NCBI GenBank assembly: GCA_001777665.1
Contig: MFEQ01000006.1
Coordinates: 213,442 to 277,441, forward strand
Length of the DNA: 64,000 bases
Source of the DNA: Candidatus Doudnabacteria bacterium RIFCSPHIGHO2_02_FULL_42_25
GTDB taxonomy: Bacteria; Patescibacteriota; Doudnabacteria; UBA920; O2-02-FULL-48-8
Direction: 5' to 3'
Shown here: in pieces, positions 18,537 through 57,420 of the stretch
How the letters are laid out: every line of letters begins with the position of its first letter
Position numbering within the stretch: the stretch's first letter is position 1
Notes under the pieces: model-generated
Database searches by the model: none
What the model saw: the letters and a program-made list of their open reading frames with translations, nothing else
Told to the model about the DNA's origin: nothing
Made by a program: the position numbers and the translations under genes

Positions 18537-21500
18537 TTAAGGCTTTACTAGAGTCCAACTGTTAAGCGAGAGATTCTTAACTAAGAAGTCTCCTTGCCAG
18601 TCGGTCGTACCTGTATCGTGAGATAAGGCTGAAGCATCGCTCCAGACGAAGCTATGACCATCGCCTAATGTAGCATCTCCTGAGTTATCATTAGTCAGGA
18701 AAGCGGCAGAAGCTGCGTGAGTAGTGGTGTTCCTCTGAAGGTCAGCTAGGATGTTATCATTGGAAGCCAAAGTCCCACCGACAGTTGCTTTTACTTCATA
18801 GGTCCTAGCACCGCTTATTAGCTCTTCTACATCATCATCGGCTTTAGTTCCGATAGTGATCAATAAGTCACAAGCTGTATCTAGTTCCTCGCAGTTTGTA
18901 GCAGTATCTGTACCAGCACCGTCACCGTCAGCAGAGATAAATGTCTCAACTGCTGTGACCACTGCGCCAGTGTCAGCATTATGGATAGCAACGCTAGCCA
19001 AGGTCGGATCAGTACCAGCGCCATCAGCAGCGCCACCGGTCTTAGCTATCTCTATTAAGACTTCCTTCCAAGCTACTGCGCCGGTACCATTTGAAGATAC
19101 CGTAAACTTGGCAAGGGTCTGCGTGCCTCCGGTCAAAGTTCCAGTCGGCAATTCTACACGAGAGATCAACGGAACAGACTTGTAGGCATACATGGTATTT
19201 CCAGGTCTATCTGTACCATTAGTCGTTACTGCACCTGACGATACCGAAGTGTACTTAACACTATCCAAGGTAGCTGTGATATCGGAATCAGTTGTGCCAG
19301 CGTTTGGACCGATAGTAGCCATGACCAATTCGACGCCTAGGACGATACTACCGTTTGCCGGGACGTTCACTGAAAATCCAGTGAAGAGCATGGAAGTGGC
19401 AGCTGGCATCGTGGCCAATGTCGCTCCAGTTGACGCATTCTTCAAGACGACTTGAGAAACTGCTGTTGCGGTTGCAAGATTGACATCAACTTCGGTCAGG
19501 TTGACTGAATCATAAGTTGAAGCAACTTTGAACCTGGCAACTTCCACGGTCCCTGAATCATCAACCAACATAGAAGCTGCAGATGCAGCATCCAAGGAAG
19601 TGGCAAATGTACCAGCAACCTCGATAATTGTCTGACCATCTTTATCGGCTTCAGAATCAGCTATCCCTGACTGTACAGTTGTCCCTGTCGAAGTCAAGTC
19701 GGTTTTTACTGAATCGTTATCGGTAATGTTTGCAGCAGCACCAATGTCACCGTAAAGCTCAATAGTCAGAGAGCTATTCATCATCAAGGTGTAATTGACT
19801 GACCAATCATTATCAGCGGCGGTTGGAGTAGACTTGATAGAAGTCGTATTCGAACCGTACTTGAGATATAGGTTAGATAGATCAGATTCATTGAAGGTTG
19901 CACCAGTAACTTCATCAATGTCCAATGAGAAGGTGGTGATATTGATGTCTTCGGTTGCAGAGCCGGTTAAGGTCCAAGCACCGAGTTTGTAGTTGGTTTG
20001 AGGAGCGACTGTGGACTGGTTTGGATATGAGGCCAAAGAAGCCAAAGTCGAAGCACCCTCAGCAACTGTCAGTTGGTTTGCAGCAATGTCAGAACCTGTT
20101 GGGACATCGAATGAGCCCAATGATACTTGTCTGGTTGCGTTACTTCCATCGTTATCGATTACGTAAGCCTGAATGGTGTCAGTAGCAACCAATTCAGCGC
20201 CACCTGTCTCTTCATCATAGATATCAGAGTACAGTTCGACTGTTGCCGGTGTACCTGGATTGACGATGAAGTTGGTGGTGAAGTTGGCGGCAGTAGCAGC
20301 AGCGCCAGCGGCAACCAAGCCTTTGGTTGAGCCGACTTGTCCACCATTGACGAAGAGCTTACCGTTGCGGAGCGTATATTCGCTATCAGTACCCGAGGTG
20401 TCGATGGCGACATCGAGGTTTTCAACCTTAATTGGTTCACCATACGCGGTAAAGGTCCATTTGCCAAGTTTTACGGACGAGGCATTGTTGGTCACATTTC
20501 CTGCTGGTGAATCAGTGGTCTTGGTTACAGTCATAGTACCGTTGTTGATAGCAACACCGTCTGAATCAGCTGGGAAGGTTCCGGTTGCACCAACGTTGAC
20601 GAGGTATTGTGAATCCACGACATCAACATCGGCTTTGTTGCGGAGCGACATCTCGAGTGTTCGAGAGGAACCGCCAATAACATCAGCAATCACTTTGATA
20701 ACCGGCGAACCAGTCTTTAGTAATTTGCTGAAACCAGAGAAGGTCACATAACCGTTAGCATCAATGTTTTGAGTTGATGCAACTTGGACACCATCAACTA
20801 ACACTCGGAAGTTCTTTACGTCGCTGTTCACGATGTTGTTGATTTGGCGCAAAGCCAATCTGGACATTGTTACATCGCGGACTCCAACTGTGAAGGTTGA
20901 TTGCCAGACAGTAATGTCAGTGCCTGGATCAGAAGCACCAGCATCAGTAGGAGCGCCTACTGCTACTGTAGCTAATTCAGCAGCTGCAGAATTGTGGAGA
21001 TTACCAACGACTGGGAGTCCACCTACGGTACCCGATGAAAGGGCAACTGCAGTTAGATTAACTCCAAGTGTTTGACCTGAGTAAGATCCATCGTCAAGAT
21101 CAGCTCGAGCAGTAATGGTTCGAGAACCTGAGACTGTGAAGAGTCCAGATGGGTTAGCAAAGGTTAAATTGTTGGAAGAGAAGGTACCAGCATCAGTCAA
21201 TCGAGTCGCACCGTCAAAGAGATAGAGGTTTGAGACCATAGCATCAGTCGAAACACCAGTTCTCATCAAGGTGAGAGACGTAACTGTGCCTGAACCTGTA
21301 AACACGAAGTTAGCTAATGGAGCAATAGATTGTGAGTAATTACCCGCACCACCATCAGTTGAATCAATAATTAATGTTGATGAAGCAGGACCAGCTAAGG
21401 AAACATTAAGAGAACCTGAAACTGGAGGAGGAGTTGTTCCACCGCCGGTGCAGGCTGCGCGCATGGAAACTGCACCTTGATCGGCCATAGCCAAATCATA

Positions 21501-22109
21501 GGAGTTAGCTCCCACGACTTTTTCAAAACCAATACCGTAAGAAGTGAATACTGCGCCTGATGGGTAACCCATTCGGCCAGTAGCGGTCATGAGCCAAACG
21601 GCTCCGCCGGTGATAACTCGAGTTCCAGCTGGGTGAGCGATAGCGCTCGAATCAATGTTGGAACCGGTTGGAAGATCAGAGAAGGTGTTTACTGGAGCGA
21701 CTTGGATGTTTGAGAAACTGTATCCGAGTCCGGTAAAGACACTACCAGTTGTAAATCCTCTCTTTTGTCCGTTGGCTACGAGGTAGACCAAAGGATCGTT
21801 TGGACCCATTACGAGGGTGCCATCAGCGTAGGTCATAATTGGTCCTACTGGCAAAGCTACGTCTTCAGCTGTGGCTGCAACAACTTGTCCGAAGTTGTAA
21901 CCATGGCTCATAAAGACTTCAGCTGACGTGAATCCACGTCGTGTACCGCCGGTGATCATCCAGACGATACCGCCAGAGAGTACCAAACAACCATCGCTAT
22001 GAACAGCAGCGGAAGCGAGTTGTGGCAAGGCACCAGAGGCAGCCCAGAGTAAACTGGAAGCAGCCAAACCGGAAGCCACGGCTTTCCGTGCTTTTAAAGA
22101 TAATTGCAT
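18537..22109 (-). CDS. large secreted surface protein (1190 aa), Thr/Ser/Gly/Ala-rich with probable Ig-like/beta-rich repeats; triplicated approx 50-aa N-terminal repeat
   Basis: Signal peptide MQLSLKARKAVASGLAASSLLWAASGALPQLASA. Three repeats of the G..W..T.G.RRGF..S..VF...GY.F type. Low-complexity T/S/G/A-rich body. Confidence 0.6.
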   Translation of the reverse strand: MQLSLKARKAVASGLAASSLLWAASGALPQLASAAVHSDGCLVLSGGIVWMITGGTRRGFTSAEVFMSHGYNFGQVVAATAEDVALPVGPIMTYADGTLVMGPNDPLVYLVANGQKRGFTTGSVFTGLGYSFSNIQVAPVNTFSDLPTGSNIDSSAIAHPAGTRVITGGAVWLMTATGRMGYPSGAVFTSYGIGFEKVVGANSYDLAMADQGAVSMRAACTGGGTTPPPVSGSLNVSLAGPASSTLIIDSTDGGAGNYSQSIAPLANFVFTGSGTVTSLTLMRTGVSTDAMVSNLYLFDGATRLTDAGTFSSNNLTFANPSGLFTVSGSRTITARADLDDGSYSGQTLGVNLTAVALSSGTVGGLPVVGNLHNSAAAELATVAVGAPTDAGASDPGTDITVWQSTFTVGVRDVTMSRLALRQINNIVNSDVKNFRVLVDGVQVASTQNIDANGYVTFSGFSKLLKTGSPVIKVIADVIGGSSRTLEMSLRNKADVDVVDSQYLVNVGATGTFPADSDGVAINNGTMTVTKTTDSPAGNVTNNASSVKLGKWTFTAYGEPIKVENLDVAIDTSGTDSEYTLRNGKLFVNGGQVGSTKGLVAAGAAATAANFTTNFIVNPGTPATVELYSDIYDEETGGAELVATDTIQAYVIDNDGSNATRQVSLGSFDVPTGSDIAANQLTVAEGASTLASLASYPNQSTVAPQTNYKLGAWTLTGSATEDINITTFSLDIDEVTGATFNESDLSNLYLKYGSNTTSIKSTPTAADNDWSVNYTLMMNSSLTIELYGDIGAAANITDNDSVKTDLTSTGTTVQSGIADSEADKDGQTIIEVAGTFATSLDAASAASMLVDDSGTVEVARFKVASTYDSVNLTEVDVNLATATAVSQVVLKNASTGATLATMPAATSMLFTGFSVNVPANGSIVLGVELVMATIGPNAGTTDSDITATLDSVKYTSVSSGAVTTNGTDRPGNTMYAYKSVPLISRVELPTGTLTGGTQTLAKFTVSSNGTGAVAWKEVLIEIAKTGGAADGAGTDPTLASVAIHNADTGAVVTAVETFISADGDGAGTDTATNCEELDTACDLLITIGTKADDDVEELISGARTYEVKATVGGTLASNDNILADLQRNTTTHAASAAFLTNDNSGDATLGDGHSFVWSDASALSHDTGTTDWQGDFLVKNLSLNSWTLVKP

Positions 22110-22558: not shown

Positions 22559-23323
22559 ATGACCAACAGCAATTTAAAACTTAAAGCAATAAATTTGAGG
22601 CAGGAAGGTTGGTCCTATAATATGATTTCTGAAAAAATAGGAGTAGCTAAAAGTACCCTTAGTAATTGGCTAGCGGAAATACCCTATAACCCCAGCGCAG
22701 AAGCAATCAAAAGAATTAAACAAGGACCTGCCAAATCTGCTGTTTTGAGACACAATATAAAGCTCCAAAACATAAAAGATATAAAAGCTCAGGCAGCTGC
22801 AGAATTAAAAAAAATTACTAAACGCGATCTTTGGATGATGGGGATTGGGTTATATATCGGTGAAGGATCTAAGGTTCATGAATATACAAGAATCGTGAAT
22901 TCTGATCCGAACATTGTTAAGCTTGCAATTAGATGGTTCCGGGAAATTTGTAAAGTACCATTAAAAAATTTTTTACTAACTGTCCATATTTATCCCAATA
23001 TTTCCGTATTGGAAGCAGTTGACTACTGGTCAACAACAACAGGTGTTCCTAAACACCAATTCGGGCAAACGCAAATCGACAAAAGGTTAAATAAAACAGC
23101 AAAAAAACAGAATCTGTTGCCTTTTGGCACAATTCATATTAGTATTAGAAGCTGTGGAGACCCTAATTTCGGTGTTGCTCTCCACAGAAAGATTATGGGC
23201 TGGATTGAAGCAGCTTATCAAGTGCGCGGGCATCGTATAGTGGCAATACCTCAGGTTTCCAACCTGATGCCGGGAGTTCGATTCTCCCTGCCCGCTCCAG
23301 AAAAGCAAAGAAGATTATTTTAA
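22559..23323 (+). CDS. HTH-domain protein with LAGLIDADG-like motif (putative homing-endonuclease-like); 3' end reads through tRNA-Gly
   Basis: N-terminal HTH GWSYNMISEKIGVAKSTLSNWL. The motif LWMMGIGLYIGEGSK resembles LAGLIDADG. The last approx 30 codons are the tRNA-Gly sequence. Confidence 0.4.
   Translation: MTNSNLKLKAINLRQEGWSYNMISEKIGVAKSTLSNWLAEIPYNPSAEAIKRIKQGPAKSAVLRHNIKLQNIKDIKAQAAAELKKITKRDLWMMGIGLYIGEGSKVHEYTRIVNSDPNIVKLAIRWFREICKVPLKNFLLTVHIYPNISVLEAVDYWSTTTGVPKHQFGQTQIDKRLNKTAKKQNLLPFGTIHISIRSCGDPNFGVALHRKIMGWIEAAYQVRGHRIVAIPQVSNLMPGVRFSLPAPEKQRRLF
23226..23299 (+). tRNA. tRNA-Gly (anticodon UCC)
   Basis: Manual fold: acceptor GCGGGCA/TGCCCGC, D-arm GTAT-AGTGGCA-ATAC, anticodon stem TCAGG/CCTGA with loop TTTCCAA, T-arm GGGAG-TTCGATT-CTCCC, discriminator U, CCA encoded. 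Confidence 0.85.
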
Positions 23324-24143: not shown

Positions 24144-24225
24144 TCGTATAAATTCACTTTGGCATTATATTCGAATTTCACTTAGAACTCAAGTATCCAG
24201 TTCTGTCCATACTAAAAAATTAGTA

Positions 24226-24256
24226 AAAAATGTGTAATTACACATTTTTTACGACT
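24226..24256. repeat. palindrome AAAAATGTGTAATTACACATTTTT plus TACGACT; downstream copy of the 24-bp direct repeat flanking the PaaX_C-like gene (other copy 24948..24971)
   Basis: Perfect 24-bp palindrome. The 24-mer tgtaattacacattttttacgact is identical at both gene ends. Confidence 0.8.
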
Positions 24257-24932
24257 AGATAATACTCTTATCTTTGAAGAATTGGTTGAGCTTTTCTTCA
24301 TCATCAGCATCTAATTTGGCAGCTTCGGCTACTGTCACAAAGTTTTCGATTTCATAATACACTGCGACGAACTCAATCTGATCAGTTGGTTTATAGGGAT
24401 AAACCCAAACTGTCCTTTGCAGCGGATAAAAATTCATTAACTTAAGCTTTTCTCGAAATAAATCTGCCCGTCTCCGATAAGGATTTGAAGGAATATCAGC
24501 CAGTACAAACCACCAATGCTTGCGCAAACGCGAGGTTTGCGGGATAGTTAGATTTTCAAAATTTAATCGTCTTACTTTATCCTCTCCTTTTTTCGTAATC
24601 TTCATAACATAGTCCTCCCCTTCTCTCATCAATTGAATATAACCATATCTTTTCAAATAATAAAAAGACTTAACAATATCCTTTTGACGTTTTTCAAATC
24701 GCTGTTTCCTGTCATAGCCGCTATAACCATAACGTTGGATTTTTCCTAACGCACTTAGTAGATTAGGGGCGATGACTGCTATAGCTACTGTTCCGGCGAG
24801 AATACCTGTCGCGAGCACAACCTCTGCCGCAGTTTTCAACATCGCTACTTGCTGATCGCTAAGCTTGGGTTTCTTGGAGGCAGTGCTCTTTCGTATCAAC
24901 TGCGATATATTTATATCCTGCTTAATTCGCAT
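24255..24932 (-). CDS. membrane-anchored PaaX_C/Cas2-fold domain protein (paralog 1 of 3), putative regulator
   Basis: N-terminal TM helix, basic wHTH-like middle region, C-terminal RKHWWFVLADIPS...FREKL...FYPLQRTVWVYPY matching the PaaX C-terminal/Cas2-like signature. 60% identical to 56669..57346. Confidence 0.5.
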   Translation of the reverse strand: MRIKQDINISQLIRKSTASKKPKLSDQQVAMLKTAAEVVLATGILAGTVAIAVIAPNLLSALGKIQRYGYSGYDRKQRFEKRQKDIVKSFYYLKRYGYIQLMREGEDYVMKITKKGEDKVRRLNFENLTIPQTSRLRKHWWFVLADIPSNPYRRRADLFREKLKLMNFYPLQRTVWVYPYKPTDQIEFVAVYYEIENFVTVAEAAKLDADDEEKLNQFFKDKSII

Positions 24933-24947
24933 TATTCGTATCTTGGA

Positions 24948-24971
24948 TGTAATTACACATTTTTTACGACT
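24948..24971. repeat. upstream copy of the 24-bp repeat (TGTAATTACA core) flanking the PaaX_C-like gene
   Basis: Identical 24-mer to 24233..24256. Confidence 0.8.
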
Positions 24972-25001
24972 AAAAAGTTATTACTTGATAATTTATTTGA
25001 A

Positions 25002-27970: not shown

Positions 27971-28318
27971 CTAGGTGTTCCCCAGCCCAAGACGATTCCC
28001 CCAAGATGTCACCGCTTTCCATGCGATGTACTCCCCGGCGATGATGATCAGAAACCCCAGCGCGTACCACTCCGAGGACCCACGCCAGTCACTCCCATAA
28101 GCGTAGGCGACTGTGCCGGAAGTGACCAGAGACTGTACCATCCAGGTACCGATCGCCCACCATCCGTTGCCGTTGGCATGAAGCCTCACGACAACGAGAA
28201 CCATGCCGAGCACCATGACCGCACCGAGCCAAACCATGACTCCTCCCTTCTTCACCTCATACCAGTTTCCGCAATTCCTTCCACAGTATCTGTTGGCGAA
28301 CAGGAGATCCATTATCAC
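27971..28318 (-). CDS. hypothetical membrane protein (GC-rich block)
   Basis: 115-aa ORF with hydrophobic helices. Codon usage matches the GC-rich block. Confidence 0.4.
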   Translation of the reverse strand: MIMDLLFANRYCGRNCGNWYEVKKGGVMVWLGAVMVLGMVLVVVRLHANGNGWWAIGTWMVQSLVTSGTVAYAYGSDWRGSSEWYALGFLIIIAGEYIAWKAVTSWGNRLGLGNT

Positions 28319-28509
28319 AGTAAAGCAATAATAGATTCGCCAACAGATAACGAGAAACGAATTTTCGGAACAAGGGCGAGAGTGGTTGTCGTAGACGGGC
28401 GTCTACTCACAAACCACTCATGCTTCTCTTGTCTGCATCAACCCTCCTAAGAGTTGTTGCTAGCGGGCCTGGGAGCTCGCCGAGGTGGGAACGTGAGTGA
28501 GGTGAGACT

Positions 28510-28704
28510 TTATTTAACGATCCGTTCGATGATCTGCTCTCCATAGAGAGCTACCGCGATTGCAGCCGCGACGCCGAGGGTCAGAACGACCCACTGGATG
28601 ATCTCTGAGACCGGGATACCGCGGATCTTACTCCTCGAGATCGGGATATGTCCGTCTTTCCCGGTGAAGACCATGGGCTGGCCGTACCATCTCACACGGA
28701 ACAT
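28510..28704 (-). CDS. small hypothetical membrane protein (GC-rich block)
   Basis: 64 aa with one TM helix, tightly followed by the next ORF. Confidence 0.3.
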   Translation of the reverse strand: MFRVRWYGQPMVFTGKDGHIPISRSKIRGIPVSEIIQWVVLTLGVAAAIAVALYGEQIIERIVK

Positions 28705-28706
28705 AA

Positions 28707-28889
28707 CTATCCTTTCGCTGCCGAGTTACGCCTGAGATATCTTACAGGATTTCCCCTGTAGATATCAACCCTGGTACCCTGCTGCCTTTTCCACGCATCG
28801 TATTGACGCGTGTGTCTGTGGCCGACCATGAACACCAGGAAAGCCACGGCGTTTACGATGACGAGCACAATCACGCCCCAAACGATCAT
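28707..28889 (-). CDS. small hypothetical membrane protein (GC-rich block)
   Basis: 60 aa with a TM helix, in a 3-bp spaced tandem with 28510..28704. Confidence 0.3.
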   Translation of the reverse strand: MIVWGVIVLVIVNAVAFLVFMVGHRHTRQYDAWKRQQGTRVDIYRGNPVRYLRRNSAAKG

Positions 28890-29013
28890 ATACCGCCTCT
28901 TTTCAAAAAACTTGCACCCCGCTACTAAATTCTAACTGTTAACTTACAACTGTCAACTTAAAACTCAGAAGCGGGGAGGAGAGGCAAGCGTTAGCATCAC
29001 CTCTCCGTTATCA

Positions 29014-29274
29014 CTACCTCTGCGCTGAGACCGAAAAATCTTCGTCGTAGGTCCCGGCAACAGCATTACGACAGAGGAAGCACTCCGACTCTGCCTCGTC
29101 ATGAACACAGGCCAGCTCGTACTTCACCGTGTCGTTGATGGCGCCAAGCATAGGCGCATCTTCGAAACGGAAATATAGACCGTCGAGTATGACATCACCG
29201 ACGACGCCGACTCGGCTGCCTAGTTCCTGGCGGAACTCTGTTTTCGCGATGACCCGATCCTTCGGATTCATCAC
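29014..29274 (-). CDS. hypothetical protein (GC-rich block)
   Basis: 86-aa ORF. Its 4-bp overlap with the upstream ORF suggests coupling. Confidence 0.35.
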   Translation of the reverse strand: MMNPKDRVIAKTEFRQELGSRVGVVGDVILDGLYFRFEDAPMLGAINDTVKYELACVHDEAESECFLCRNAVAGTYDEDFSVSAQR

Positions 29275-29606
29275 TCGCTCCTTGTGCTAAGGAGCAGTCC
29301 TGTGTCCTCGCCCTGATAGTGCTTCTTCACGCTCTTCCATACGGCACGCGTGTAGCGCTCGACGAGGAGCCGCAGAACAGGCCCGGATAGAAGATCCTTG
29401 TGGAGCGAGACGAATATTTCCTGGTCGGTCGGTTTGAAGTATGTCACCAGGTACATGTCGATGCGCTTTTCAAGATTATCGGCGATGCGCCGAGCCTCTT
29501 CGTTTCGAAAAAACGCAGCTTCCGCGGGTCCAATTGCCATTTCACTCCTCCTACCCTTCGGTGCCGATCGACTGATCGACTCCCTTCTGCTGAACTTTAT
29601 TCGCAA
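29271..29606 (-). CDS. hypothetical protein (GC-rich block); start possibly at the internal Met (MAIGPAEAAFF)
   Basis: 111-aa ORF. The competing plus-strand ORFs look like GC-frame artefacts. Confidence 0.35.
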   Translation of the reverse strand: MRIKFSRRESISRSAPKGRRSEMAIGPAEAAFFRNEEARRIADNLEKRIDMYLVTYFKPTDQEIFVSLHKDLLSGPVLRLLVERYTRAVWKSVKKHYQGEDTGLLLSTRSE

Positions 29607-29753
29607 TCCTGATGAAAATCAGGATCTCTATCTTGAGACCCTGAATCAATCCTGAATCGAGTTCAGGACAAGGTTCAGGGTTGCGATACTGTCCAAGAGA
29701 AGAGAGATGAGAGGTCGCACGTGGGCAACCTCTCTTCTCCAACGAACGTCCTC

Positions 29754-30116
29754 CTACTTCTGCGGGTACGTCTTGCTCGAATCCCAGTGGATATCCTCGG
29801 GCTCGAGCGGGACCGACTCCTCGATTGGCGGCTCGATCAGGTATTCATCATCGAAGCCCGTGATCGATTCGCGGTTGAGAACCAGTGACGGGTTGCTGAT
29901 GAATTCGCCGAGACGCTGTGCGCCGCACGAGAAATCGCAAGCCCCGCGATCCTCTTCACCCACCGGTTCCGCCCAGACGACTTGTCCGTCCTCGCAGACA
30001 ATCCTGGCCAGCGAATCCATATGGGCGACACCATCACACCCCCGTGAACGAAGGATTTGAGAACCGTCAGGCTCGGTCCGATCGACGGTTTCCGAGTAAA
30101 TCCGAAACCTTCTCAT
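29754..30116 (-). CDS. hypothetical protein (GC-rich block), acidic
   Basis: 120-aa ORF with plausible composition. Confidence 0.35.
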   Translation of the reverse strand: MRRFRIYSETVDRTEPDGSQILRSRGCDGVAHMDSLARIVCEDGQVVWAEPVGEEDRGACDFSCGAQRLGEFISNPSLVLNRESITGFDDEYLIEPPIEESVPLEPEDIHWDSSKTYPQK

Positions 30117-30503
30117 ATACTCACCTCACATGCGCCATACAGACGCAAAACGAAACCTAGCAACACTTTCGCTTCCATTCCAGGACGAGCCCAAAACAGA
30201 TGGTTCCACCGATGATCAAGCTCAATCCGGCGGCTGGCGAATAGAAAAAATTTGTAGCGGGTATCCCGGTCGAAAGACGAAGAACTACAAACCTCGGGAG
30301 ACACTCTCCCTTCTGAAACTTTCGAATTTTTTTCAAAAACTTTAGAAGAGAAGGATGTATTTGCCTGGGCACATCCTTCGAAGCCTGACGCAGTCTGTGT
30401 GAGGGCGCTGCGTGACCCTTTTGAGATTAACTCTCTAGTCCTCCTTGGACTCAACGGATTTCCGCCGCCGTCGGTTTTATTTGTTTGTGGGACTAATTTC
30501 GGC

Positions 30504-31118
30504 TTAATTTGCCTGGTCCGTCCCTTGACCACTAGCCTCTTTCGGCTCGGTTACCGGCATGCGGAAGATCTCACCGGGCTTGAGTCGGACCACCACAAGC
30601 TGGGTCCTGACCTTGCGCAACTGACTCGGTTCCAAAATCATGTCTCCTAGCAGGAGATGAAACCGCTCGTCCTCCGGATAAACGTCTGGCGCCAACTCCC
30701 GCAGTGAATGCAGATACTCGAGGCTGGTGATGACCGGCGCGAACCACTGCTGCTTGAGGAAATCCTGTTGCGAGACTGTAGCGATCATGTCGATCTTCTC
30801 GTCACAGTACAGATCGATCGCCTTGGAGAACACATCACCCCAAGAGGTCGATTCTCCTAGATCAGTCATTTCGGGGTTCGGATCTTCTCGACCTCGATAG
30901 ACGTCCATGCAGTAGTTGGCGCAGTCTCGATTGCCATCCCAACTGCCACCGCAGTTCGAACACGTATCGAGGCCGATGATTCGCCAGTTTTGCGGGTACT
31001 TCTGCTTCTTGATTTCCGCCTCTGCGGCCTTGTGTCCACTAACGTGGATCTGACGCTTCGTCACGCAATTCCAAGCGTAGACTGACTCGTCATTCCACCA
31101 ATCATTACTATAACGCAT
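30504..31118 (-). CDS. hypothetical Cys-rich protein (GC-rich block)
   Basis: 204 aa with Cys clusters (CSNCGGSWDGNRDCANYC). Preceded by an AT-rich promoter-like segment at 31140..31262. Confidence 0.4.
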   Translation of the reverse strand: MRYSNDWWNDESVYAWNCVTKRQIHVSGHKAAEAEIKKQKYPQNWRIIGLDTCSNCGGSWDGNRDCANYCMDVYRGREDPNPEMTDLGESTSWGDVFSKAIDLYCDEKIDMIATVSQQDFLKQQWFAPVITSLEYLHSLRELAPDVYPEDERFHLLLGDMILEPSQLRKVRTQLVVVRLKPGEIFRMPVTEPKEASGQGTDQAN

Positions 31119-31139
31119 CTCACACCTCCGCGCTTTGCG

Positions 31140-31262
31140 CTAGAGACCGAAGAACTTGATTGTTCCCGGAACTCTGAATACTTAGTGAACTTTACGGTCG
31201 TATAAATCAATCCGTGTTACAACAATTAAATATTCAGAATCCTGAAAACAATTTGGGAAAGG
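31140..31262. repeat. AT-rich promoter-like segment, paralogous to 32085..32197 (shared taaatattcagaatcctg[a/g]a[a/t]acaat and ctgaa[t/c]acttag blocks)
   Basis: Direct sequence similarity. Each segment sits upstream of a minus-strand ORF run inside the GC-rich block. Confidence 0.5.
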
Positions 31263-31447
31263 GCGCGAGGGATGAAGATATTCTATCACCCCTCGGCTTG
31301 TCGTTAGAAGCGGACGATGAATCGGATTCGCTTCTTGCGAAGATCCCGCTTACGCGGTTTCTTCTTCGCGGGTTTCAACTGGATGATCATGACTCCGAAG
31401 CGATCCTTGGCTTCGAGGTCCGCGGGCGTCTCGCGTCGCGTCGACAT

Positions 31448-31648
31448 CTAGTTCCGGCCGTACTTGTTGTCGAAGTTCATCGGCGACGAACCGTTGAGCT
31501 GTGTCGCGCTCGCCGGCAACACCATCGCGTTGATCATCGCATGAGTGCGCACGGCGGCCTGATGTTCGTTGGTCCGATCGATCAGGATTACCTCGCCGTT
31601 GAACTTGCCAATTGCGACGTGCTTCGAGTCTACTAATACCTGAACCAC
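31448..31648 (-). CDS. small hypothetical protein (GC-rich block)
   Basis: 66 aa. Its composition is more protein-like than the overlapping Arg-rich alternative frames. Confidence 0.25.
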   Translation of the reverse strand: MVQVLVDSKHVAIGKFNGEVILIDRTNEHQAAVRTHAMINAMVLPASATQLNGSSPMNFDNKYGRN

Positions 31649-31856
31649 TCTCGTACCCTCCTGTAAAGTAGGTGCGTGGCTGTTGATGTTGAGTTGGAAA
31701 GCGGCCTTGGGGTGACCGCAGGGTGGAAACTTTGGCAGGGGTGTATGTTTGTCTTTCCTCTGGATCCATTTTCACACGAGGTGTAATAGATCCAAGGGAG
31801 AGAGGGCAATCGCAGAGCGATCGCCCGGGGAAAGGAAGTTGTCGCGAACAGAACGT

Positions 31857-32042
31857 TCAGCGAGCGAGGACGTAGACGATGTGGTCCGGATCCTGGGGAT
31901 CCGTGTAGTTGCCGAGCACCGTCTGACGCTCTTCGTCGGTGAGGTTGTCACCGAAGCACCAGTCTCCAATAGCACGGAGCGCCGAAGCGATACGAGCAAT
32001 CAAGTTCCTCATCATACTCCTCCTGAGAAGTTGTGGAAACAA
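31857..32042 (-). CDS. small hypothetical protein (GC-rich block)
   Basis: 61 aa, downstream of the second AT-rich promoter-like segment at 32085..32197. Confidence 0.25.
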   Translation of the reverse strand: MFPQLLRRSMMRNLIARIASALRAIGDWCFGDNLTDEERQTVLGNYTDPQDPDHIVYVLAR

Positions 32043-34827: not shown

Positions 34828-34923
34828 TCCCCTCTCCTAGAGAGGAGAGGGGTTGGGGGTGAGGTTGATCTCTTCTTTCGAGGAATCTACCCCACCCTTA
34901 GTCCCTCCCCTTTCAAGGGGAGG
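34828..34923. repeat. pair of polypyrimidine/polypurine hairpins (CCCCTCTCCT-agag-AGGAGAGGGG and CCCTCCCCT-ttca-AGGGGAGGG); family member A
   Basis: Perfect 10-bp and 9-bp stems. Lies between a 3' gene end and the groES upstream region. Confidence 0.6.
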
Positions 34924-35011
34924 GAGACTCTAATTTGTTAAATCAATTGCTTTCTGCTTAAAAAAATCCCGGTTGGGATTTTTGTTTTTTTCCAGTGTTT
35001 ATTATAGCGAT

Positions 35012-39308: not shown

Positions 39309-39455
39309 CCCGTTAGAAATAATGATTAGTTAATTGTACTTGTCTAATTATAATTGTCCCGCCGAGTATAAAAGTTACAAACATAAACTCTGTAAAATTT
39401 CTAACGGGATTCATATCTCGTATAGTTTATCAAAAACTTCACTTTTTGTAAATAG

Positions 39456-39488
39456 TGACCTATTTAGTCCGATCGTACAAATAGGTAA
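39456..39488. repeat. 33-bp palindromic repeat TGACCTATTTAGTCCGATCGTACAAATAGGTAA (copy 1; copy 2 at 40049..40081) flanking PaaX_C-like gene paralog 2
   Basis: The two copies differ at one base. Internal inverted arms CCTATTT/AAATAGG surround a CGATCG core. Confidence 0.8.
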
Positions 39489-39490
39489 GA

Positions 39491-40042
39491 TCAGCCCAGA
39501 TTGAATTTTTTAACCAGGTCAGAAAAAATATCAATTTTTCCAGCTGTTATTACTCTAACGAACGGTCTGATCTCATAAATCTCTTTTAGAAAGTCAATTT
39601 CATCCTCGCAAGGATAAGGACAAACCCAGACGCTTTTTTGAATCATTTTAAAGCCAAGCTCAATTAATTTTTCTCTAAATACTTTTCTGTTTAGTTTAAA
39701 TTCTTCTGGAATATCAAAAACGACTATTCGCCATTGTTTATCCCAACGCTTGGGTTTTTGAATTTTCATTTCTTCTAAATTAAAACTAACTAACTTTTCT
39801 TTTCCTTCTTTTGTTAAAGTAAATTCAGTTTTGCCGTTTTTGTAGGCTACTCCGATATAACCTCTCTTCTTTAAATTACTAAATGATCTTTTTATTTGCT
39901 GGCGATTATAGGACTTTAATCGTTTATACTGACCAAGGGCGACAAAAAGACCCGGTGCTGTCGCTGCCACTACAAATATTCCCGCTACTCCTATAAAGGC
40001 TAAAATACTTTTCGCAATTATTGATTTGTTGCTCTTTTTCAT
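39491..40042 (-). CDS. membrane-anchored PaaX_C/Cas2-fold domain protein (paralog 2 of 3)
   Basis: N-terminal TM. C-terminal KQWRIVVFDIPEEFKLNRKVFREKLIELGFKMIQKSVWVCPY. Confidence 0.5.
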   Translation of the reverse strand: MKKSNKSIIAKSILAFIGVAGIFVVAATAPGLFVALGQYKRLKSYNRQQIKRSFSNLKKRGYIGVAYKNGKTEFTLTKEGKEKLVSFNLEEMKIQKPKRWDKQWRIVVFDIPEEFKLNRKVFREKLIELGFKMIQKSVWVCPYPCEDEIDFLKEIYEIRPFVRVITAGKIDIFSDLVKKFNLG

Positions 40043-40048
40043 AAATTT

Positions 40049-40081
40049 TGACCTATTTGGTCCGATCGTACAAATAGGTAA
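40049..40081. repeat. 33-bp palindromic repeat copy 2
   Basis: See 39456..39488. Confidence 0.8.
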
Positions 40082-40091: not shown

Positions 40092-41030
40092 TTATCTAAT
40101 AAGGCTTAAATTATAACCATCAGAAACAAATTCTACCGTGCCATCGAGATCAGTCCGCAAAACTTCGACGTGTGATGCGGCTAAGTTCCCGAGTGCTTCT
40201 TCTGTCGGATGGCCATAAGTATTGTCCTTCCCGACCTCGATGACTCCTATTTTGGGTGATACGGCTTCGATAAACTCTTTCGATGAAGAATATTTGGAGC
40301 CATGATGCCCGACTTTGAGAATATCCGCATCGAGATCAAACTGCCCTCGAATCGTATCTTCCACAATTCTGTCAATATCAGCAGTAAATAATATTTTTGT
40401 CTGGCCGAATGTTAATTTGCCGACTATTCCTGTGTTATTTGTAGACAGGCCTTGGTCCTCGACTCCAGCTGGGGGATAATAAACATCAAACACAGTGGAA
40501 TTATCCAACCAAACCCGCTGACCCGTTTGTGCATAAATTTTTTCTGATCCTTCTTCATCCAAAAGCTTTAGAAATTCTTGGTAGGTTGCTGTCGGGGCTG
40601 TAACTTTGGTTAGCATCATTGTCTTAACTTTATAGCGCTTCAAAATGTCTATAAATCCACTGGAGTGGTCAGCATCTGGATGAGTCAAAATCAGTAAATC
40701 AATTGACCTATCCCAAAAAGGCATTTGTTTCCCGAGTTCTGATAACACAGCGTCAGATGGTCCGCCATCGATAACGATTTGAGTACCTTGATAAGTTTGG
40801 ATAAAAATTGAATCACCCTGGCCAACATCCAGAAAATCGACCTCAAGCAAATGCTCTGACGAAGCTTTCACATTGGCCACAAAAACCACAGCGACTAAAA
40901 TAGACAGAGGTAAAATTACAAAGGTTGCGAGTTGTTTTGTTTTTGATTCCATAACCAAATTAATCCGATTAAAAGAATATAATAAACAGCACCCACATAC
41001 CAATTCGTCGAAAATGAAAACGAGGCCCAC
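40092..41030 (-). CDS. ComEC-type metallo-beta-lactamase domain protein (C-terminal part of ComEC; likely start at internal Met MESKTKQ)
   Basis: DFLDVGQGDSIFIQ, LILTHPDADHSSG and VGHHGSKYSSS MBL motifs, preceded by a TM helix. Confidence 0.7.
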   Translation of the reverse strand: MGLVFIFDELVCGCCLLYSFNRINLVMESKTKQLATFVILPLSILVAVVFVANVKASSEHLLEVDFLDVGQGDSIFIQTYQGTQIVIDGGPSDAVLSELGKQMPFWDRSIDLLILTHPDADHSSGFIDILKRYKVKTMMLTKVTAPTATYQEFLKLLDEEGSEKIYAQTGQRVWLDNSTVFDVYYPPAGVEDQGLSTNNTGIVGKLTFGQTKILFTADIDRIVEDTIRGQFDLDADILKVGHHGSKYSSSKEFIEAVSPKIGVIEVGKDNTYGHPTEEALGNLAASHVEVLRTDLDGTVEFVSDGYNLSLIR

Positions 41031-42340
41031 GGGATTTTACTCGCCCACTCCACCACAGTTAAAACGTAAGTTAAAACGCCCCAAGCCAGCCAAATAAATG
41101 GATACGGCAAGAATGCTGCTAGAAATCCAAACAACATGGCCAGTGGAATGAAATATAGAATCAAAACATTGACTGGGATCGCGACAGCTGATAATCGACT
41201 AAAGTAAATCAGGATAATGGGCAAAGTCGCGATGTAGGCTGCAGTCGATGGAACTAAATAAAAGTTGATAAATTTCGGAACTCGGCAAAAGTATTGTGTC
41301 AGGATAGGGCCAATAAAAACTAGTCCCATTAGGGCGGCAAAAGATAGTAAAAATCCCAAATCAAAATGCAAAATTTGCGGGTTGATCGCAACCATCACGG
41401 CGGCAGTTAGCGCGAGTGCATTGTTAATATTTTTTCTGCGTCCGATGTTCAGTGCGAGCATGCCCAAAATCCCCATAATACCCGCACGCACGGCCGAAGC
41501 AGACGCTCCGACCATGATCACAAACAGTACTATGGTAACTAACGCCAAAATAAAAGAAATGCGGCGGTTAAAAAAGAATATTAAGAACCAGTTGATGGCC
41601 GAAGCTATAATCGTGATGTTGAACCCAGAAATCGCGATGACATGGGTTGTCCCAGTTATGGACAAGCTGTCCAATAAATCTTGCGGGATGGTTTTACGCA
41701 TACCAACAAGAATCCCAGCCAAGAAGGAATTTTGCGGCTCCGGAAGCAAAATCTCTAACCGGTGCGTAAATTTTTTCTTTATTTGGATCAATAACGCTCG
41801 CACAGGATTACCAAAGCCCTCTTCGATTTCAAAAATCTTCGGATTATAAACCACAGCGTCGATGCCATACCGCGACAAATAATTTTTATACGAAAAATCC
41901 TCGAATTCTTTGGGTTCCAGAATTTTCCCCTCGAAATTTATCATTTGACCATACTCATATTCTGGAAATCGACTAACCCGCAGCAAAATTTTAGATTCTA
42001 ATTGCTGATTGTTAATAATTAGTTTCCCAACAGTCAAAAATGTTTTGTCTGAACGAACATCTGGTTCCTCGACTATCACTCCTTGCAATACCAGCTCTTG
42101 GTCATAAAACTGTTCTAAATCATTTTGTCGATAATCAGTCGCAAATCTTAAACTTCCAAGCAAGGCGATAATTCCGGCAATAGCCAAAATTAAAACTCTT
42201 TGATTGCGAAACGCAATTGTGCCGGCAATTATAAAAATCATGGCCAGAATAGCCATGATTTGATAATTTATGAATCGCCCGAAAAAGACACCGACAATGA
42301 ATGCTATACAGAAAATCAAAAAGATTTTCGATTTGGGCAT
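40916..42340 (-). CDS. ComEC/Rec2 competence membrane domain protein (N-terminal part)
   Basis: Multi-TM DUF4131 plus Competence-domain layout. Ends within the first codons of the MBL ORF in another frame. Confidence 0.7.
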   Translation of the reverse strand: MPKSKIFLIFCIAFIVGVFFGRFINYQIMAILAMIFIIAGTIAFRNQRVLILAIAGIIALLGSLRFATDYRQNDLEQFYDQELVLQGVIVEEPDVRSDKTFLTVGKLIINNQQLESKILLRVSRFPEYEYGQMINFEGKILEPKEFEDFSYKNYLSRYGIDAVVYNPKIFEIEEGFGNPVRALLIQIKKKFTHRLEILLPEPQNSFLAGILVGMRKTIPQDLLDSLSITGTTHVIAISGFNITIIASAINWFLIFFFNRRISFILALVTIVLFVIMVGASASAVRAGIMGILGMLALNIGRRKNINNALALTAAVMVAINPQILHFDLGFLLSFAALMGLVFIGPILTQYFCRVPKFINFYLVPSTAAYIATLPIILIYFSRLSAVAIPVNVLILYFIPLAMLFGFLAAFLPYPFIWLAWGVLTYVLTVVEWASKIPWASFSFSTNWYVGAVYYILLIGLIWLWNQKQNNSQPL

Positions 42341-53891: not shown

Positions 53892-53932
53892 AAAAGCGGC
53901 CGAACCCCTAACTCGGGGTCCAACCGCACAAG
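53891..53932. terminator. bidirectional terminator between convergent genes
   Basis: AAAAAA followed by GCGG..CCCC-taactc-GGGG..CCGC and then a T-tract on the opposite strand. Confidence 0.6.
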
Positions 53933-53939
53933 ACTTGTA

Positions 53940-54923
53940 TCAGCTAGCAGCGTAGGCCGGCTGTGTCAGTCGATGTTGAATTTTGCGACACCGACCGATG
54001 CAGTCCTGGAGAAGGTACTCCGGAACAACCCACGACGCCGCCAACTCACGATCTGCCTGTTTCTTTGGATCAAGTTTGCTGATGTCGACAATCTGCCGAC
54101 CAATAGAGGCCTTTTTGCCCGCATCGCGGACCGGCTGCTTGTCGTATCCCACCGGTGATTGCTTTTTCGCCTTCGCCAGTGCGTAGTCCGTCGTATCCCA
54201 GAACCGCGATGAGTCAGGAGTCAAAACTTCGTCGGCCAATACAGCACCGAATTCGAACTTGGTGTCGGCGATGATGATCCCCTGCGGCAAAGCGTACTCA
54301 TAAGCCATCCGATAATCCGCAAGAGACGCTTGCTGGATCCGCTTGAATTCAGTCTGGCCGATCATGGCGATGGCTTCGGCTTCCGAGATGTTTACGTCGT
54401 GACCGTCCTCGGATTTGGTTGACGGAGTAAAAATCGGCTCCGGCAATTTACTCCCATCGTGCAGACCCGCCGGCAACTCGATACCGCAAACGGCACCGGT
54501 TGCTTGATAGTCCTTCCACCCACTACCTGTAAGGTAGCCTCGTACGATCGCCTCGATTTTCCGCATTTCCTGTTTCTGTACCACGATCGCCCGTTGGTGA
54601 AGCTCGGCGTAGTTGCGGATGTGCTTCGGAAGAAACTCGTCGATGTCCTTACCGTGGGCGACCAGGTGGTTCGGCACATTCTTGAACAAGGTCGTGAGCC
54701 AGAAGACCACGAGCTTGGTCAAAACCTCTCCCTTGCCTTCGACTAACGCATCAAGGACGAAGTCGAAGATGCTGATCCGGTCGCTGGCAACAACCAGAAG
54801 ATGATCAGCGCTTCGCAGTTCGAATGTATCGCGCACTTTGCCCTGATGAGCACGGCGCACGCCAGCATGCAGCAGTTCGCGTGTGACTTCAGATTCGCGC
54901 ACGCGCTCTGGGATATACGGCAT
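53940..54923 (-). CDS. purC: phosphoribosylaminoimidazole-succinocarboxamide (SAICAR) synthase
   Basis: LLHAGKVRDTFEL...LVVASDRISIFDFVL pattern. Approx 320-aa long form. Confidence 0.75.
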   Translation of the reverse strand: MPYIPERVRESEVTRELLHAGVRRAHQGKVRDTFELRSADHLLVVASDRISIFDFVLDALVEGKGEVLTKLVVFWLTTLFKNVPNHLVAHGKDIDEFLPKHIRNYAELHQRAIVVQKQEMRKIEAIVRGYLTGSGWKDYQATGAVCGIELPAGLHDGSKLPEPIFTPSTKSEDGHDVNISEAEAIAMIGQTEFKRIQQASLADYRMAYEYALPQGIIIADTKFEFGAVLADEVLTPDSSRFWDTTDYALAKAKKQSPVGYDKQPVRDAGKKASIGRQIVDISKLDPKKQADRELAASWVVPEYLLQDCIGRCRKIQHRLTQPAYAAS

Positions 54924-55062
54924 CGCTAACTCCCCCTTGAAAGGGCCGGCAATGCCGGCGGAAATTTTTAAGTAACGTGTAACCTATATTACTCCTTTGC
55001 CCTTTTTTTGGCAATAAAAAAAGGTTAGCCGACCCGATGGGTCAACTAACCATAATCTCCCG

Positions 55063-56496
55063 CTAGACCGAAAGTTGGACTCGCTCTGAGTCTGCATCTT
55101 TCGGAAACTGTGCCAAGAGTTCCTCGGTAGCGCGGGCGAACTCTTCCGCCTGTTGTGGAGCAGCACCCACAAACTTCTGTGGATCGAGAATGTCATCGAG
55201 TTGATCGACTATCGGAGCGAAATACTTATCCGCCCGAATCCGACCAATCAAATCGATGCTCTCGCCTTCTCGTTGCCGAAGCAGCTCGGCGTGAGCATGC
55301 TGTCGCAGACGTTCATGAGCCTCTTGGCGGTCAGCGCCGGCCTGGAACATCCGCTCCATGATCAAAGCACTTGCCAAGAAAGGCAGCTCCGCCTTGAGGT
55401 TGCGCTCGATGACCTTGGGGTAGACCCGCAGATCCTGGAAGACATTGATCATGATTCGTGTGATCGAATCGGCCAGAAGGAACGACTCCGGGAGATATCG
55501 CCGCCGGCCTGCACTGTCGTCCAGAGTTCTTTCGAACAACTGCAAGGCCTGCGTGTTGAGGGCACTCGGAACCGCCCCCATGAGTTCACGAGCCAAACTA
55601 CATGCTCGTTCTGAACGCATCGGATTTCGCTTGTGAGGCATCCGGCTTGAGCCGACTTGCCCTTCCTCGAAGGGCTCTTCCATCTCGCCGAGTTCCTGGA
55701 GCTCTCGGATGTCAAACGCGATTTTGTGAATACTGGCGGCCATGCTGGCCAGAACGGACAAAACCTTCGTGTCGATCTTCCGCATGTAAGTCTGTCCAGT
55801 GATGGACAGAATGGTCTTGAAACCGAACTTTGCGGCGACATGATTTTCCATTCCCAAAACCGAGTCCCGATCTTTGACGAGTTCCAGAAGACTCGCCTGG
55901 GTGCCGGTCGCGTCTTTCAGACCGCGAAAAGGCAACCAGCTAATCAGATCTCGGACCTCCTCCAAGTCCATCATGATTTCCGTTGCCCACATCGCTGCCC
56001 GCTTACCCACTGTTGTCGGCTGTGCAGTCATCAAATGCGTCCGTCCGAGAGTTGCCAGGTTGGGATAGCGCTTGATGAACTCGTTGATCGCCGTCAGCAG
56101 GTTGGACAATCTGCGTCGAACAATCAGAAGCGAATCGCGGATTTGAATCAGTTCCGCGTTGTCCGTGATATCGCAGCTAGTACACCCGAGGTGAATAATC
56201 GGAGCGGCACTGGGAGCCACTAATCCGAAAGCCTTGTTGTGCGACACCACGTCATGCTTGAGTTTTCTCTCAAACTCAATGACCCTGTCGTAATTGATGT
56301 CGTCGACGTGGGCCTCCATCTCTGCGATCTGTTCACGACTGATGTTGGGTACTCGCCATCGGTATTGCGCTTTGGCAACCGCGACCCATATCCGTCGCCA
56401 CAGTCCGTACTTCGTGTCATCCGACCAGACTCTCTGCATCTCGACCGATGAGTAACGGCCACACAACGGCGACTCGTACAAATCGTGTTTTGCCAT
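55063..56496 (-). CDS. purB: adenylosuccinate lyase
   Basis: Fumarase/ASL signature GSSRMPHKRNPMRSE. 477 aa. Confidence 0.9.
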   Translation of the reverse strand: MAKHDLYESPLCGRYSSVEMQRVWSDDTKYGLWRRIWVAVAKAQYRWRVPNISREQIAEMEAHVDDINYDRVIEFERKLKHDVVSHNKAFGLVAPSAAPIIHLGCTSCDITDNAELIQIRDSLLIVRRRLSNLLTAINEFIKRYPNLATLGRTHLMTAQPTTVGKRAAMWATEIMMDLEEVRDLISWLPFRGLKDATGTQASLLELVKDRDSVLGMENHVAAKFGFKTILSITGQTYMRKIDTKVLSVLASMAASIHKIAFDIRELQELGEMEEPFEEGQVGSSRMPHKRNPMRSERACSLARELMGAVPSALNTQALQLFERTLDDSAGRRRYLPESFLLADSITRIMINVFQDLRVYPKVIERNLKAELPFLASALIMERMFQAGADRQEAHERLRQHAHAELLRQREGESIDLIGRIRADKYFAPIVDQLDDILDPQKFVGAAPQQAEEFARATEELLAQFPKDADSERVQLSV

Positions 56497-56611: not shown

Positions 56612-56651
56612 TTGTCGCAAAAACAATGTAATTACATTAAAATTGCGACAA
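56612..56651. repeat. 40-bp nested palindrome TTGTCGCAAAAACAATGTAATTACATTAAAATTGCGACAA (downstream flank of PaaX_C-like paralog 3)
   Basis: Outer arms TTGTCGCAA/TTGCGACAA. Inner AATGTAATTACATT perfect palindrome. Shares the TGTAATTACA core with the 24.2-kb paralog flanks. Confidence 0.8.
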
Positions 56652-56668
56652 ACTTAAATTTAAACAAT

Positions 56669-57346
56669 TTAAATTAACTCTGCTGCTTTGAAAAATTTTG
56701 TTAATTTTTCTTCGTCGTCCGGATTTAATTTAGATATTTCCATCACGGTCACAAACTGCTCTATTCCATAATACACCGATATAAACTCAACTTGATCAAT
56801 TGGGTTATATGGATAAACCCAAACAGTTCTTTGCAGCGGATAAAAATTCATCGTTTGAAGTTTTTCCCGAAACAAATCCGCGTGATGCCGATACTCTTTC
56901 GATGGAATATCAGCCAAAACAACCCACCAATGCTTGCGCCACCGACTGTCGCGTGGGATTTCTAAATAATCAAAATTCATTCGCCAAATTTTTTCTTGCC
57001 CTTTTTTCGTTACAGTCATGACGTATTCATCTCCTTCTTTCATCAACTGAACGTAACCATAACGTTTAAGATAATAAAAAGATCTAACTAAAACCTTTTG
57101 ACGTTTCTGAAACCGTTCCTTTCGATCAATCCCATGGTAGGAATATTTTGCAATTTTACCTATGGCATTCAATAAATTTGGCGCGATAGCAGCTATGGTA
57201 ACAACTCCAGCAACTGCTGCCAAAGCCAAAATGGCTTCCCCTGCTGTTTTCAATACCGCAATTTGTTTGTCATTCAGAGTAGGTTTTTTGGATACAGTGC
57301 TATTTTTTATAACAGCCGCAAAAGCAATTTGGTCTTTTATCCTCAT
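56669..57346 (-). CDS. membrane-anchored PaaX_C/Cas2-fold domain protein (paralog 3 of 3)
   Basis: 60% identical to 24255..24932. AT-rich codon usage inside a GC-rich block. Confidence 0.5.
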   Translation of the reverse strand: MRIKDQIAFAAVIKNSTVSKKPTLNDKQIAVLKTAGEAILALAAVAGVVTIAAIAPNLLNAIGKIAKYSYHGIDRKERFQKRQKVLVRSFYYLKRYGYVQLMKEGDEYVMTVTKKGQEKIWRMNFDYLEIPRDSRWRKHWWVVLADIPSKEYRHHADLFREKLQTMNFYPLQRTVWVYPYNPIDQVEFISVYYGIEQFVTVMEISKLNPDDEEKLTKFFKAAELI

Positions 57347-57372
57347 AAATCAATCATATCAATTATTTACCT

Positions 57373-57411
57373 TTGTCGCAAAAATGATGTAATTACATTG
57401 TTTTTGCGACT
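57373..57411. repeat. approx 40-bp palindrome TTTGTCGCAAAAATGATGTAATTACATTGTTTTTGCGAC (upstream flank of paralog 3)
   Basis: Near-copy of 56612..56651 with the same orientation. Confidence 0.8.
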
Positions 57412-57420
57412 AATTTAAAA

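Follow-up and report, generated by a model that had tools for sequence, protein, structure and literature searches.

In the lambda immunity region, the cI gene lies between the operators OL and OR, which loop together and tighten autoregulation; these operators are triplets of 17-bp sites that also drive the lytic promoters. Other modules with palindromic elements, such as IS200/IS605, integron attC and Acinetobacter pdif, need a transposase, an integrase or Xer recombinases, and their sites are common to many cassettes. The Escherichia coli regulator PaaX has an operator of the form TGATTC-N27-GAATCA and represses its own promoter by excluding RNA polymerase (PMC9493321). In regulators of the ToxR/CadC type (PMC10629549, PMC5430869), a single helix tethers the DNA-binding domain and brings bound DNA to the membrane. 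Here, we analyze a 64,000-nt stretch of the genome of Candidatus Doudnabacteria bacterium RIFCSPHIGHO2_02_FULL_42_25 (assembly GCA_001777665.1, contig MFEQ01000006.1, positions 213,442 to 277,441; hereafter, the window), which carries three paralogous genes bracketed by palindromes. We suggest, with moderate confidence, that these genes encode minimal membrane-tethered PaaX-like autorepressors, each with a private operator at both ends of its gene.

An earlier reading of the bare sequence (the original prediction) had described three related open reading frames (ORFs), and all three are present where it placed them, on the minus strand and mutually related:

24255..24932, minus strand: paralog 1 gene, 225 aa, with a tail, a hydrophobic helix, a winged-helix-like segment and a PaaX_M/Cas2-like domain (PF20803, 42.4 bits)
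39491..40042, minus strand: paralog 2 gene, 183 aa, short-tail subfamily (PF20803, 78.8 bits; PF09827, 26.7 bits)
56669..57346, minus strand: paralog 3 gene, 225 aa (PF20803, 47.7 bits)

Identity is 65% between paralogs 1 and 3 and ∼35% between paralog 2 and either of them; no fourth copy of the family was found by tblastn in the window. Paralog 1 is also 100% identical to a protein of Ca. Doudnabacteria RIFCSPLOWO2_02_FULL. All three proteins exceed the Pfam gathering cut-off of 24 bits for PF20803 (PaaX_M, the central Cas2-like domain). None of them matches PF08223 (PaaX_C, the C-terminal helical ligand-binding domain) or PF07848, and the chains stop directly past the Cas2-like domain. The predicted architecture of a transmembrane helix, a winged-helix-like segment and a Cas2-type fold is therefore retained, but its label "PaaX_C" was wrong, because no PaaX C-terminal domain occurs in any of the three; the domain is PaaX_M. 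The PaaX model TIGR02277 aligns with residues 45–164 of paralog 2 at 38 bits, far under its cut-off of 264 bits. In the AlphaFold model of paralog 1, the C-terminal domain has a predicted local distance difference test (pLDDT) score above 90, and the best structural match of the model is E. coli PaaX (entry 8a39), over 109–138 residues that include the winged-helix segment. Near the N terminus, the window paralogs have a hydrophobic 19-residue stretch (Kyte-Doolittle mean 2.3–2.4) ending in AP(N/G). Together, the profile matches and the model point to proteins of a minimal PaaX type, which would consist of a winged-helix-like segment and a Cas2-like domain without the ligand-binding domain.

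The domain also resembles Cas2, with which it shares the ferredoxin-like fold and the motif hhhhFDIP ... FR..L...GF...Q.SVW. Paralog 2 scores marginally above the cut-offs of two Cas2 profiles (23.8 bits for PF09827; 27.6 versus 24.5 bits for TIGR01573), and paralogs 1 and 3 fall below both. Unlike Cas2, however, the family domain is joined in one chain with a membrane helix and a winged-helix-like segment. We found no CRISPR array and no cas1 in the window and no cas genes among the neighbors, and a link to CRISPR was rejected for want of an array. Members of the family appear in databases as "hypothetical protein," "PaaX-like central Cas2-like domain-containing protein," or "Cas2," and paralog 2 itself is named "CRISPR-associated endonuclease Cas2" by both NCBI and UniRef. 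Since the window has neither an array nor cas1, this name is probably a misannotation arising from the shared Cas2-like motif, which our analysis corrects. A PADLOC search for defense systems returned only Cas2-like and weak winged-helix matches.

As had been predicted, each of the three genes lies between two direct copies of a palindrome of its own. The sites (listed without strand) and one promoter-like element are as follows:

24935..24970: upstream (promoter-side) site of paralog 1; distal arm and TGTAATTACA core intact, gene-proximal arm degenerate
24220..24255: downstream site of paralog 1; overlaps the stop codon, contains the 30-bp perfect palindrome GTAAAAAATGTGTAATTACACATTTTTTAC, and scores terminator-like on the minus strand
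40049..40081: upstream site of paralog 2; ACCTATTT...CGATCG...AAATAGGT, separated from the start codon by 6 nt (40043–40048)
39456..39488: downstream site of paralog 2; begins 2 nt past the stop codon
57375..57410: upstream site of paralog 3; GTCGCA-7-TGTAATTACA-7-TGCGAC, the gene-proximal arm giving a −35-like hexamer
57353..57381, minus strand: promoter-like site of paralog 3; TTGCGA-17 nt-TATGAT, with the −10 hexamer ending 6 nt before the ATG
56614..56649: downstream site of paralog 3; centered 37 nt past the stop codon and 135 nt before the purB start

The repeated stretch differs in length and fidelity among the three loci. For paralog 1 it is 25 nt long and 100% identical (24233–24257 and 24948–24972), so that the identical 24-mer of the original prediction is real, except that the upstream copy lacks the gene-proximal arm. 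For paralog 2 the repeat spans 46 nt at 89% identity (39443–39488 and 40036–40081); the 33-mer proposed here does lie at both flanks, but the two copies differ by one base. For paralog 3, the nested palindromes of ∼40 bp reported on both sides were recovered as a 57-nt repeat at 81% identity (56611–56667 and 57372–57428). The core said to be common to paralogs 1 and 3 is TGTAATTACA, which occurs exactly four times in the window, always flanking these two genes. Degenerate patterns for the full sites matched only the flanks in the window, and none of 100 shuffled sequences gave any match. There are five long palindromes in the window in all, two of which are family sites. No further sites or paralogs occur in an additional 20 kb past the window ends. 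The sites are thus unique to these flanks within ∼84 kb and are not followed by T tails, which rules out the generic terminators or intergenic repeats that the original prediction had named as a finding that would undo it. An Rfam search of the window returned two tRNAs only.

The bracket extends well beyond this genome. A scan of one genome per species yielded 38 loci from Doudnabacteria, Parcubacteria-type, and other candidate-phyla-radiation bins (designated below by L numbers), and 33 of these together with the three window genes gave 36 usable family genes. An exact repeat of at least 12 nt common to the upstream and downstream flanks was present in 26 of the 36, versus two of 139 neighboring control genes, and one of those two controls is itself a more distant family member with its own bracket. 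At the family loci the flank repeat is nearly always palindromic, and the palindrome varies from locus to locus and even among paralogs of one genome (e.g., GTATGTAATTACATAC, ACATGCAATTGCATGT, CGCATATGCG, TTTTCGTATATACGAAAA, and TCACGATCGTGA). The bracket is therefore a trait of the family: nearly all members examined, most of them from other genomes of the candidate phyla radiation, have a private palindromic site at either end of the gene. A profile search at E ≤ 1e-10 puts the family at ∼2600 cluster representatives (50% identity); among the best-scoring 150 of these, most have 180–230 residues and align from about profile position 30–40, that is, from the hydrophobic helix onward. The hydrophobic 19-residue stretch was present in all 33 members checked (Kyte-Doolittle mean 1.8–2.7), and in most members it ends in a conserved Ala-Pro(-Asn) ∼15–20 residues before the DNA-binding segment. 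By eye, no clear pattern relates winged-helix sequences to outer hexamers of the sites (described below) in the manner of a recognition code.

Two motifs of the proteins deserve mention in their own right. The hydrophobic helix of paralog 1 closes with Ala-Pro(-Asn) (residues 55–57), which is invariant in the family alignment; by analogy, the helix-breaking Pro-Asn is reminiscent of motifs needed for intramembrane proteolysis. Residues 146–148 are the Asp-Ile-Pro that ends the first Cas2-like strand, also invariant, and the Asp aligns with the conserved Asp of Cas2.

We aligned the upstream and downstream copies of 32 loci. The resulting site is ∼36 bp long and tripartite (outer hexamer, 7 nt, 10-bp core, 7 nt, outer hexamer), the outer hexamers lying ∼31 bp apart from center to center with 24 bp between them. 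Its parts differ both in identity between the two copies and in palindromic symmetry:

Core: identity between copies 0.85–0.97; symmetry 0.91–0.98 (positions 1–4)
Outer hexamers: identity between copies 0.90–0.95 (positions ±12–17); symmetry 0.87–0.95 (positions 13–18)
Spacers: identity between copies 0.68–0.75; symmetry 0.70–0.77
Beyond ±20: identity between copies 0.25–0.3; symmetry at background

This block-wise conservation, with its two peaks of symmetry, looks like the signature of the positions that a dimer would contact in a two-fold symmetric protein-binding site. The long-tail group of Doudnabacteria has cores of TGTAATTACA or xxCAATTGxx, and the short-tail group, which includes paralog 2, has CGATCG or CGGTCG; across the family, the hexamers are more variable than the cores. 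Within the group of L003 the core differs between orthologous loci (TGTAATTACA versus CACAATTGTG), and at each locus both copies have changed jointly. Moreover, the two copies flanking a gene may be only 81%–89% identical and yet keep hexamers and core, which argues for selection on binding sites rather than for a fresh target duplication.

The upstream copy sits on the likely promoter. Its center lies a median of 42 nt before the start codon, and its gene-proximal arm contains a −35-like or −10-like element in 19 of 32 loci, versus nine of 32 for the downstream copies. The −35-like arms (TTAGAC, TTGCGA, TTGACT) are followed by a −10 hexamer 16–18 nt on, and the −10-like arms read TAGAAT or TATAAT. 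At several loci the −10 hexamer ends 0–12 nt from the start codon, so close as to suggest leaderless or near-leaderless mRNAs; the layout at paralog 3 suggests the same for its predicted transcript. The downstream copy, in turn, is centered a median of 36 nt past the stop codon of its own gene and a median of 152 nt from the next start codon; in most loci it lies 13–60 nt past the stop codon. It occurs both before co-directional genes (14 loci) and before convergent ones (11 loci). Given this position relative to the own stop codon and the indifference to the orientation of the next gene, the downstream copy belongs to the preceding gene. Since conservation falls on the same positions in both copies, we predict that the downstream one, too, is retained for protein binding. 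The stems are A+T-rich, and a run of T follows only three of 32 upstream and two of 32 downstream copies. We set aside a 44-bp palindrome in L045, which is an ordinary A-tract/T-tract terminator behind a lipoprotein gene.

Copies of a site that stand alone are rare. A site of the paralog 3 type at L043:2427–2462 lies between a CYTH-domain gene, which ends 4 nt before it, and a DUF1761 gene, which begins 84 nt after it, and has the layout TTGCGA-17-TAnnnA, as in the promoter of paralog 3; it comes from the scan of one metagenome and belongs to a related genome, the genome studied here being absent from that metagenome. A third copy of the L006-type site was found at L001:6222–6262, on another contig of the same genome as L006; it retains the core and the hexamers but not the spacers, and after its TAGAAT arm come a strong Shine-Dalgarno sequence and a gene of 217 residues. 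Apart from this L001 copy, each of 30 scanned family loci (∼3–6.6 kb) has only its two bracketing sites, and no extra sites occur in 47 kb around three relatives. From their surroundings, the solo sites look like extra target promoters, although they could also be deletion scars.

These observations fit together in the following model. The N-terminal hydrophobic helix would hold the protein at the membrane, the Cas2-like domain would dimerize, and the dimer would recognize a private, two-fold symmetric site of ∼36 bp. Through the copy of this site on its own promoter the protein would repress its own synthesis, and the second copy, ∼36 bp past the stop codon, would be retained as another binding site. 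The two sites may cooperate, either through a loop of the intervening 0.6–0.9 kb or as barriers to polymerases on their way into or out of the gene, so that candidate roles of the second site are looping, an insulating roadblock against neighboring transcription, and membrane capture of the locus. In this way, each gene would form a self-contained autoregulatory unit, insulated from its surroundings and anchored at the membrane, and some members may act on a single additional promoter outside their own locus. Co-inheritance and the analogy with PaaX suggest that the sites are bound by the protein encoded between them. We consider this reading, the first of two offered by the original prediction, probable and the better supported of the pair, in view of its PaaX-like site geometry and the promoter elements in 19 of 32 upstream arms.

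In comparison with the described systems, the family is closest to PaaX of E. coli and Pseudomonas, its best structural match, with which it shares the PF20803 domain and a putative winged helix, as well as 6-bp inverted repeats about three helical turns apart (here, hexamer-N24-hexamer), including those on its own promoter as a putative operator. Unlike PaaX, it has no PaaX_C domain, hence no phenylacetyl-CoA sensing, and no paa genes among neighbors, which are unrelated and vary by locus; it adds an N-terminal membrane helix, a conserved 10-bp core in the site, and a second site behind the gene; and it forms several paralogs per genome, each with a private site. With the ligand domain and the paa context missing, these proteins are not PaaX in the strict sense. 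The arrangement recalls lambda, in that a repressor gene would be bracketed by its own (here, putative) palindromic operators, but the protein family is unrelated, a single 36-bp site stands at either end of a chromosomal gene, and looping remains conjectural here. A DNA-binding domain predicted to be tethered to the membrane by one helix is also reminiscent of ToxR and CadC, except that the helix comes before the DNA-binding domain in the chain, that this domain has another fold, and that there is neither a periplasmic sensor domain (the tail has at most 37 residues) nor a second soluble domain. A gene between similar palindromic elements is likewise what IS200/IS605, attC, and pdif modules present, but here each gene has a private site, no recombinase was found, and positions are syntenic. 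The family is thus neither Cas2 nor an IS-like element. We found no paper in the searchable literature linking PaaX with Cas2, with Patescibacteria, or with the candidate phyla radiation, and within that literature the earlier statement that the system is undescribed holds.

Several observations weigh against the autorepressor model. The winged-helix segment, on which DNA binding would depend, is modeled with pLDDT scores of only 60–78 and has no significant match to a Pfam winged-helix model. Within the ∼84 kb of this genome that were covered, no site was found away from its own gene, which makes any regulon tiny or absent. The distance between upstream and downstream sites shows no helical phasing, which leaves looping specifically unsupported, and the model gives a repressor no evident need for a site behind its own gene. 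The orientation in the membrane is also delicate, since a DNA-binding domain outside the cell would be incompatible with a repressor: the charges flanking the helix point to a cytoplasmic C terminus by a mean margin of only 1.5, and in several short-tail members it is the N-terminal flank that is the more positive. Finally, the symmetry of the spacers (see above) is higher than contact-free DNA should keep, and compensated double changes between the copies number 31, versus two to eight in slid controls. This hints at an added constraint on self-complementarity or DNA shape, although A-tract/T-tract spacers or exchange from arm to arm could explain it as well.

The compensated changes would be expected if the palindromes acted as nucleic-acid hairpins apart from any protein binding, either as RNA stem-loops that terminate, stabilize, or insulate the transcript or as cruciforms. 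This would also suit the arms of 15–24 perfect pairs seen in many loci, the terminator-like score of the downstream copy of paralog 1, and the usual position of downstream copies shortly past the stop codon. We nevertheless judge it very unlikely. T runs are as scarce as noted above; the palindrome mismatches (35 G·T, 23 A·C, and 164 other on the sense strand) show no G·T enrichment, so that a folded hairpin or RNA stem is not indicated; and conservation falls into hexamer and core blocks instead of running evenly along the stem. In addition, the center of the L011 site is not self-complementary and yet is conserved between its copies, many upstream copies supply the −35 or −10 element and would hence be incompletely transcribed, and the private sequence of each paralog is left unexplained. 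Equally improbable, in our estimation, is that the proteins are membrane tethers or centromere-like anchors rather than regulators, each paralog pinning its own locus, a point on the chromosome, through the two sites. The short distance from hydrophobic helix to DNA-binding segment in all 33 members, the near restriction of sites to the flanks of their own genes, and the presence of three paralogs within 64 kb would all fit such a role, and the winged-helix segment weakly resembles the archaeal centromere-binding protein AspA. That match (E ∼0.04) is not significant, however; no partner ATPase or conserved neighbor was found at the loci, and the overlap of the upstream copy with promoter-like elements is needed by a repressor but not by a tether.

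The second reading of the original prediction was a selfish or mobile cassette with hairpin ends resembling those of IS200/IS605, in which the module would move from palindrome to palindrome, the palindromes would be recombination or cleavage sites for the Cas2-like protein or a host recombinase, and solo sites would be excision scars. Paralog 3 provides the strongest case for it, being a unit of 29%–41% G+C (GC) content that is bounded by its palindromes inside a 7.7-kb island of 55% GC; the description of an AT-rich cassette in a GC-rich block next to purB was thus accurate, although the gene on the other side, called pyrC, matches only Amidohydro_2. DNA similarity between the paralog 1 and paralog 3 modules is confined to the stretch from palindrome to palindrome, direct repeats of 25–57 nt are found at each gene, solo palindromes do occur, and the family keeps an invariant Asp in the Cas2 motif (FDIP/ADIP). 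The GC contrast and the limits of similarity imply at least one duplication or insertion at the level of the module, and to that extent the claim that the unit moves as a module stands; of ongoing transposition there is no sign. The module is a single ORF with PaaX_M/Cas2-like matches only, without a transposase or recombinase domain, and no relative is encoded on viral contigs. Positions are syntenic although the family proteins are only 37%–45% identical to paralog 1: window paralog 1 and L004 share the gene order LTD protein, HU, family gene, tRNA-Pro, and SpoIIM, and further syntenic groups are L003, L010, L012, and L044, and L019 with L020, while neighboring genes differ between most loci. 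All 24 contigs with an identical PurB also carry the paralog 3 cassette, but as a search for an empty site this comparison is uninformative, the identical protein always lying beside the cassette and the next-nearest PurB being only 61% identical. No presence/absence variation was seen, in a comparison that lacked truly close sister genomes. The diverged copies of the site keep their hexamer and core positions, and the solo sites stand in promoter-like positions. Synteny, the lack of viral matches, and the lack of presence/absence variation argue against an active mobile cassette, which we regard as quite unlikely and which leaves this second reading mostly unsupported. Unlikely too, but slightly less so, is a self-addressed system specific to the candidate phyla radiation, in which each membrane-anchored protein would bind at the two ends of the gene that encodes it and nowhere else, either to pin defined points of the chromosome to the membrane of these tiny cells or for excision, exchange, or uptake of the module through the conserved Cas2-type Asp; if this were true, solo palindromes would be footprints of loss.

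Gene regulation in bacteria of the candidate phyla radiation is almost unexplored. If the autorepressor reading is correct, sequence alone predicts dozens of cognate protein-operator pairs of mutually different specificity, possibly a natural set of orthogonal repressors. The combination of a two-end operator with a membrane tether may also show how genes are insulated in the compact genomes of tiny cells that seemingly have few classical terminators.

Some features of the surroundings were noted along the way. At several loci (L044:10001–20678 and L047:110–10784; also the group of L003, L010, and L012), family genes of one orthologous group lie directly upstream of a type IV secretion-like cluster that comprises TrbL_3/VirB6-like, PrgI, TraC-like, and VirB4-like ATPase genes, with the downstream palindrome ∼310 nt before the TrbL gene. 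The window contains blocks of 47%–58% GC (53900–61600, 28000–32000, and 19000–22000) in a genome of ∼35%–43% GC; the block at 53.9–61.6 kb encodes SAICAR synthase, PurB (adenylosuccinate lyase; nearest relative 61% identical), and the Amidohydro_2 protein, and horizontal acquisition of nucleotide-metabolism genes is the probable origin of the blocks. Directly upstream of paralog 2, a ComEC-like protein is encoded at 40092–42340 by two overlapping ORFs, a membrane part (40916–42340) and a metallo-beta-lactamase part (40092–41030), which could reflect a frameshift, a split gene, or a wrong start call. A plus-strand ORF of 254 residues at 22559–23323 overlaps tRNA-Gly (23226–23299), and a related ORF lies near the family gene of L024. 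Last, an element of ∼90 nt centered on the hairpin TCCCTCCCCTTtcAAGGGGAGGGA is shared at 79% identity between the window (34851–34938) and L043:3243–3332, and may be a small RNA or a repeated intergenic element.

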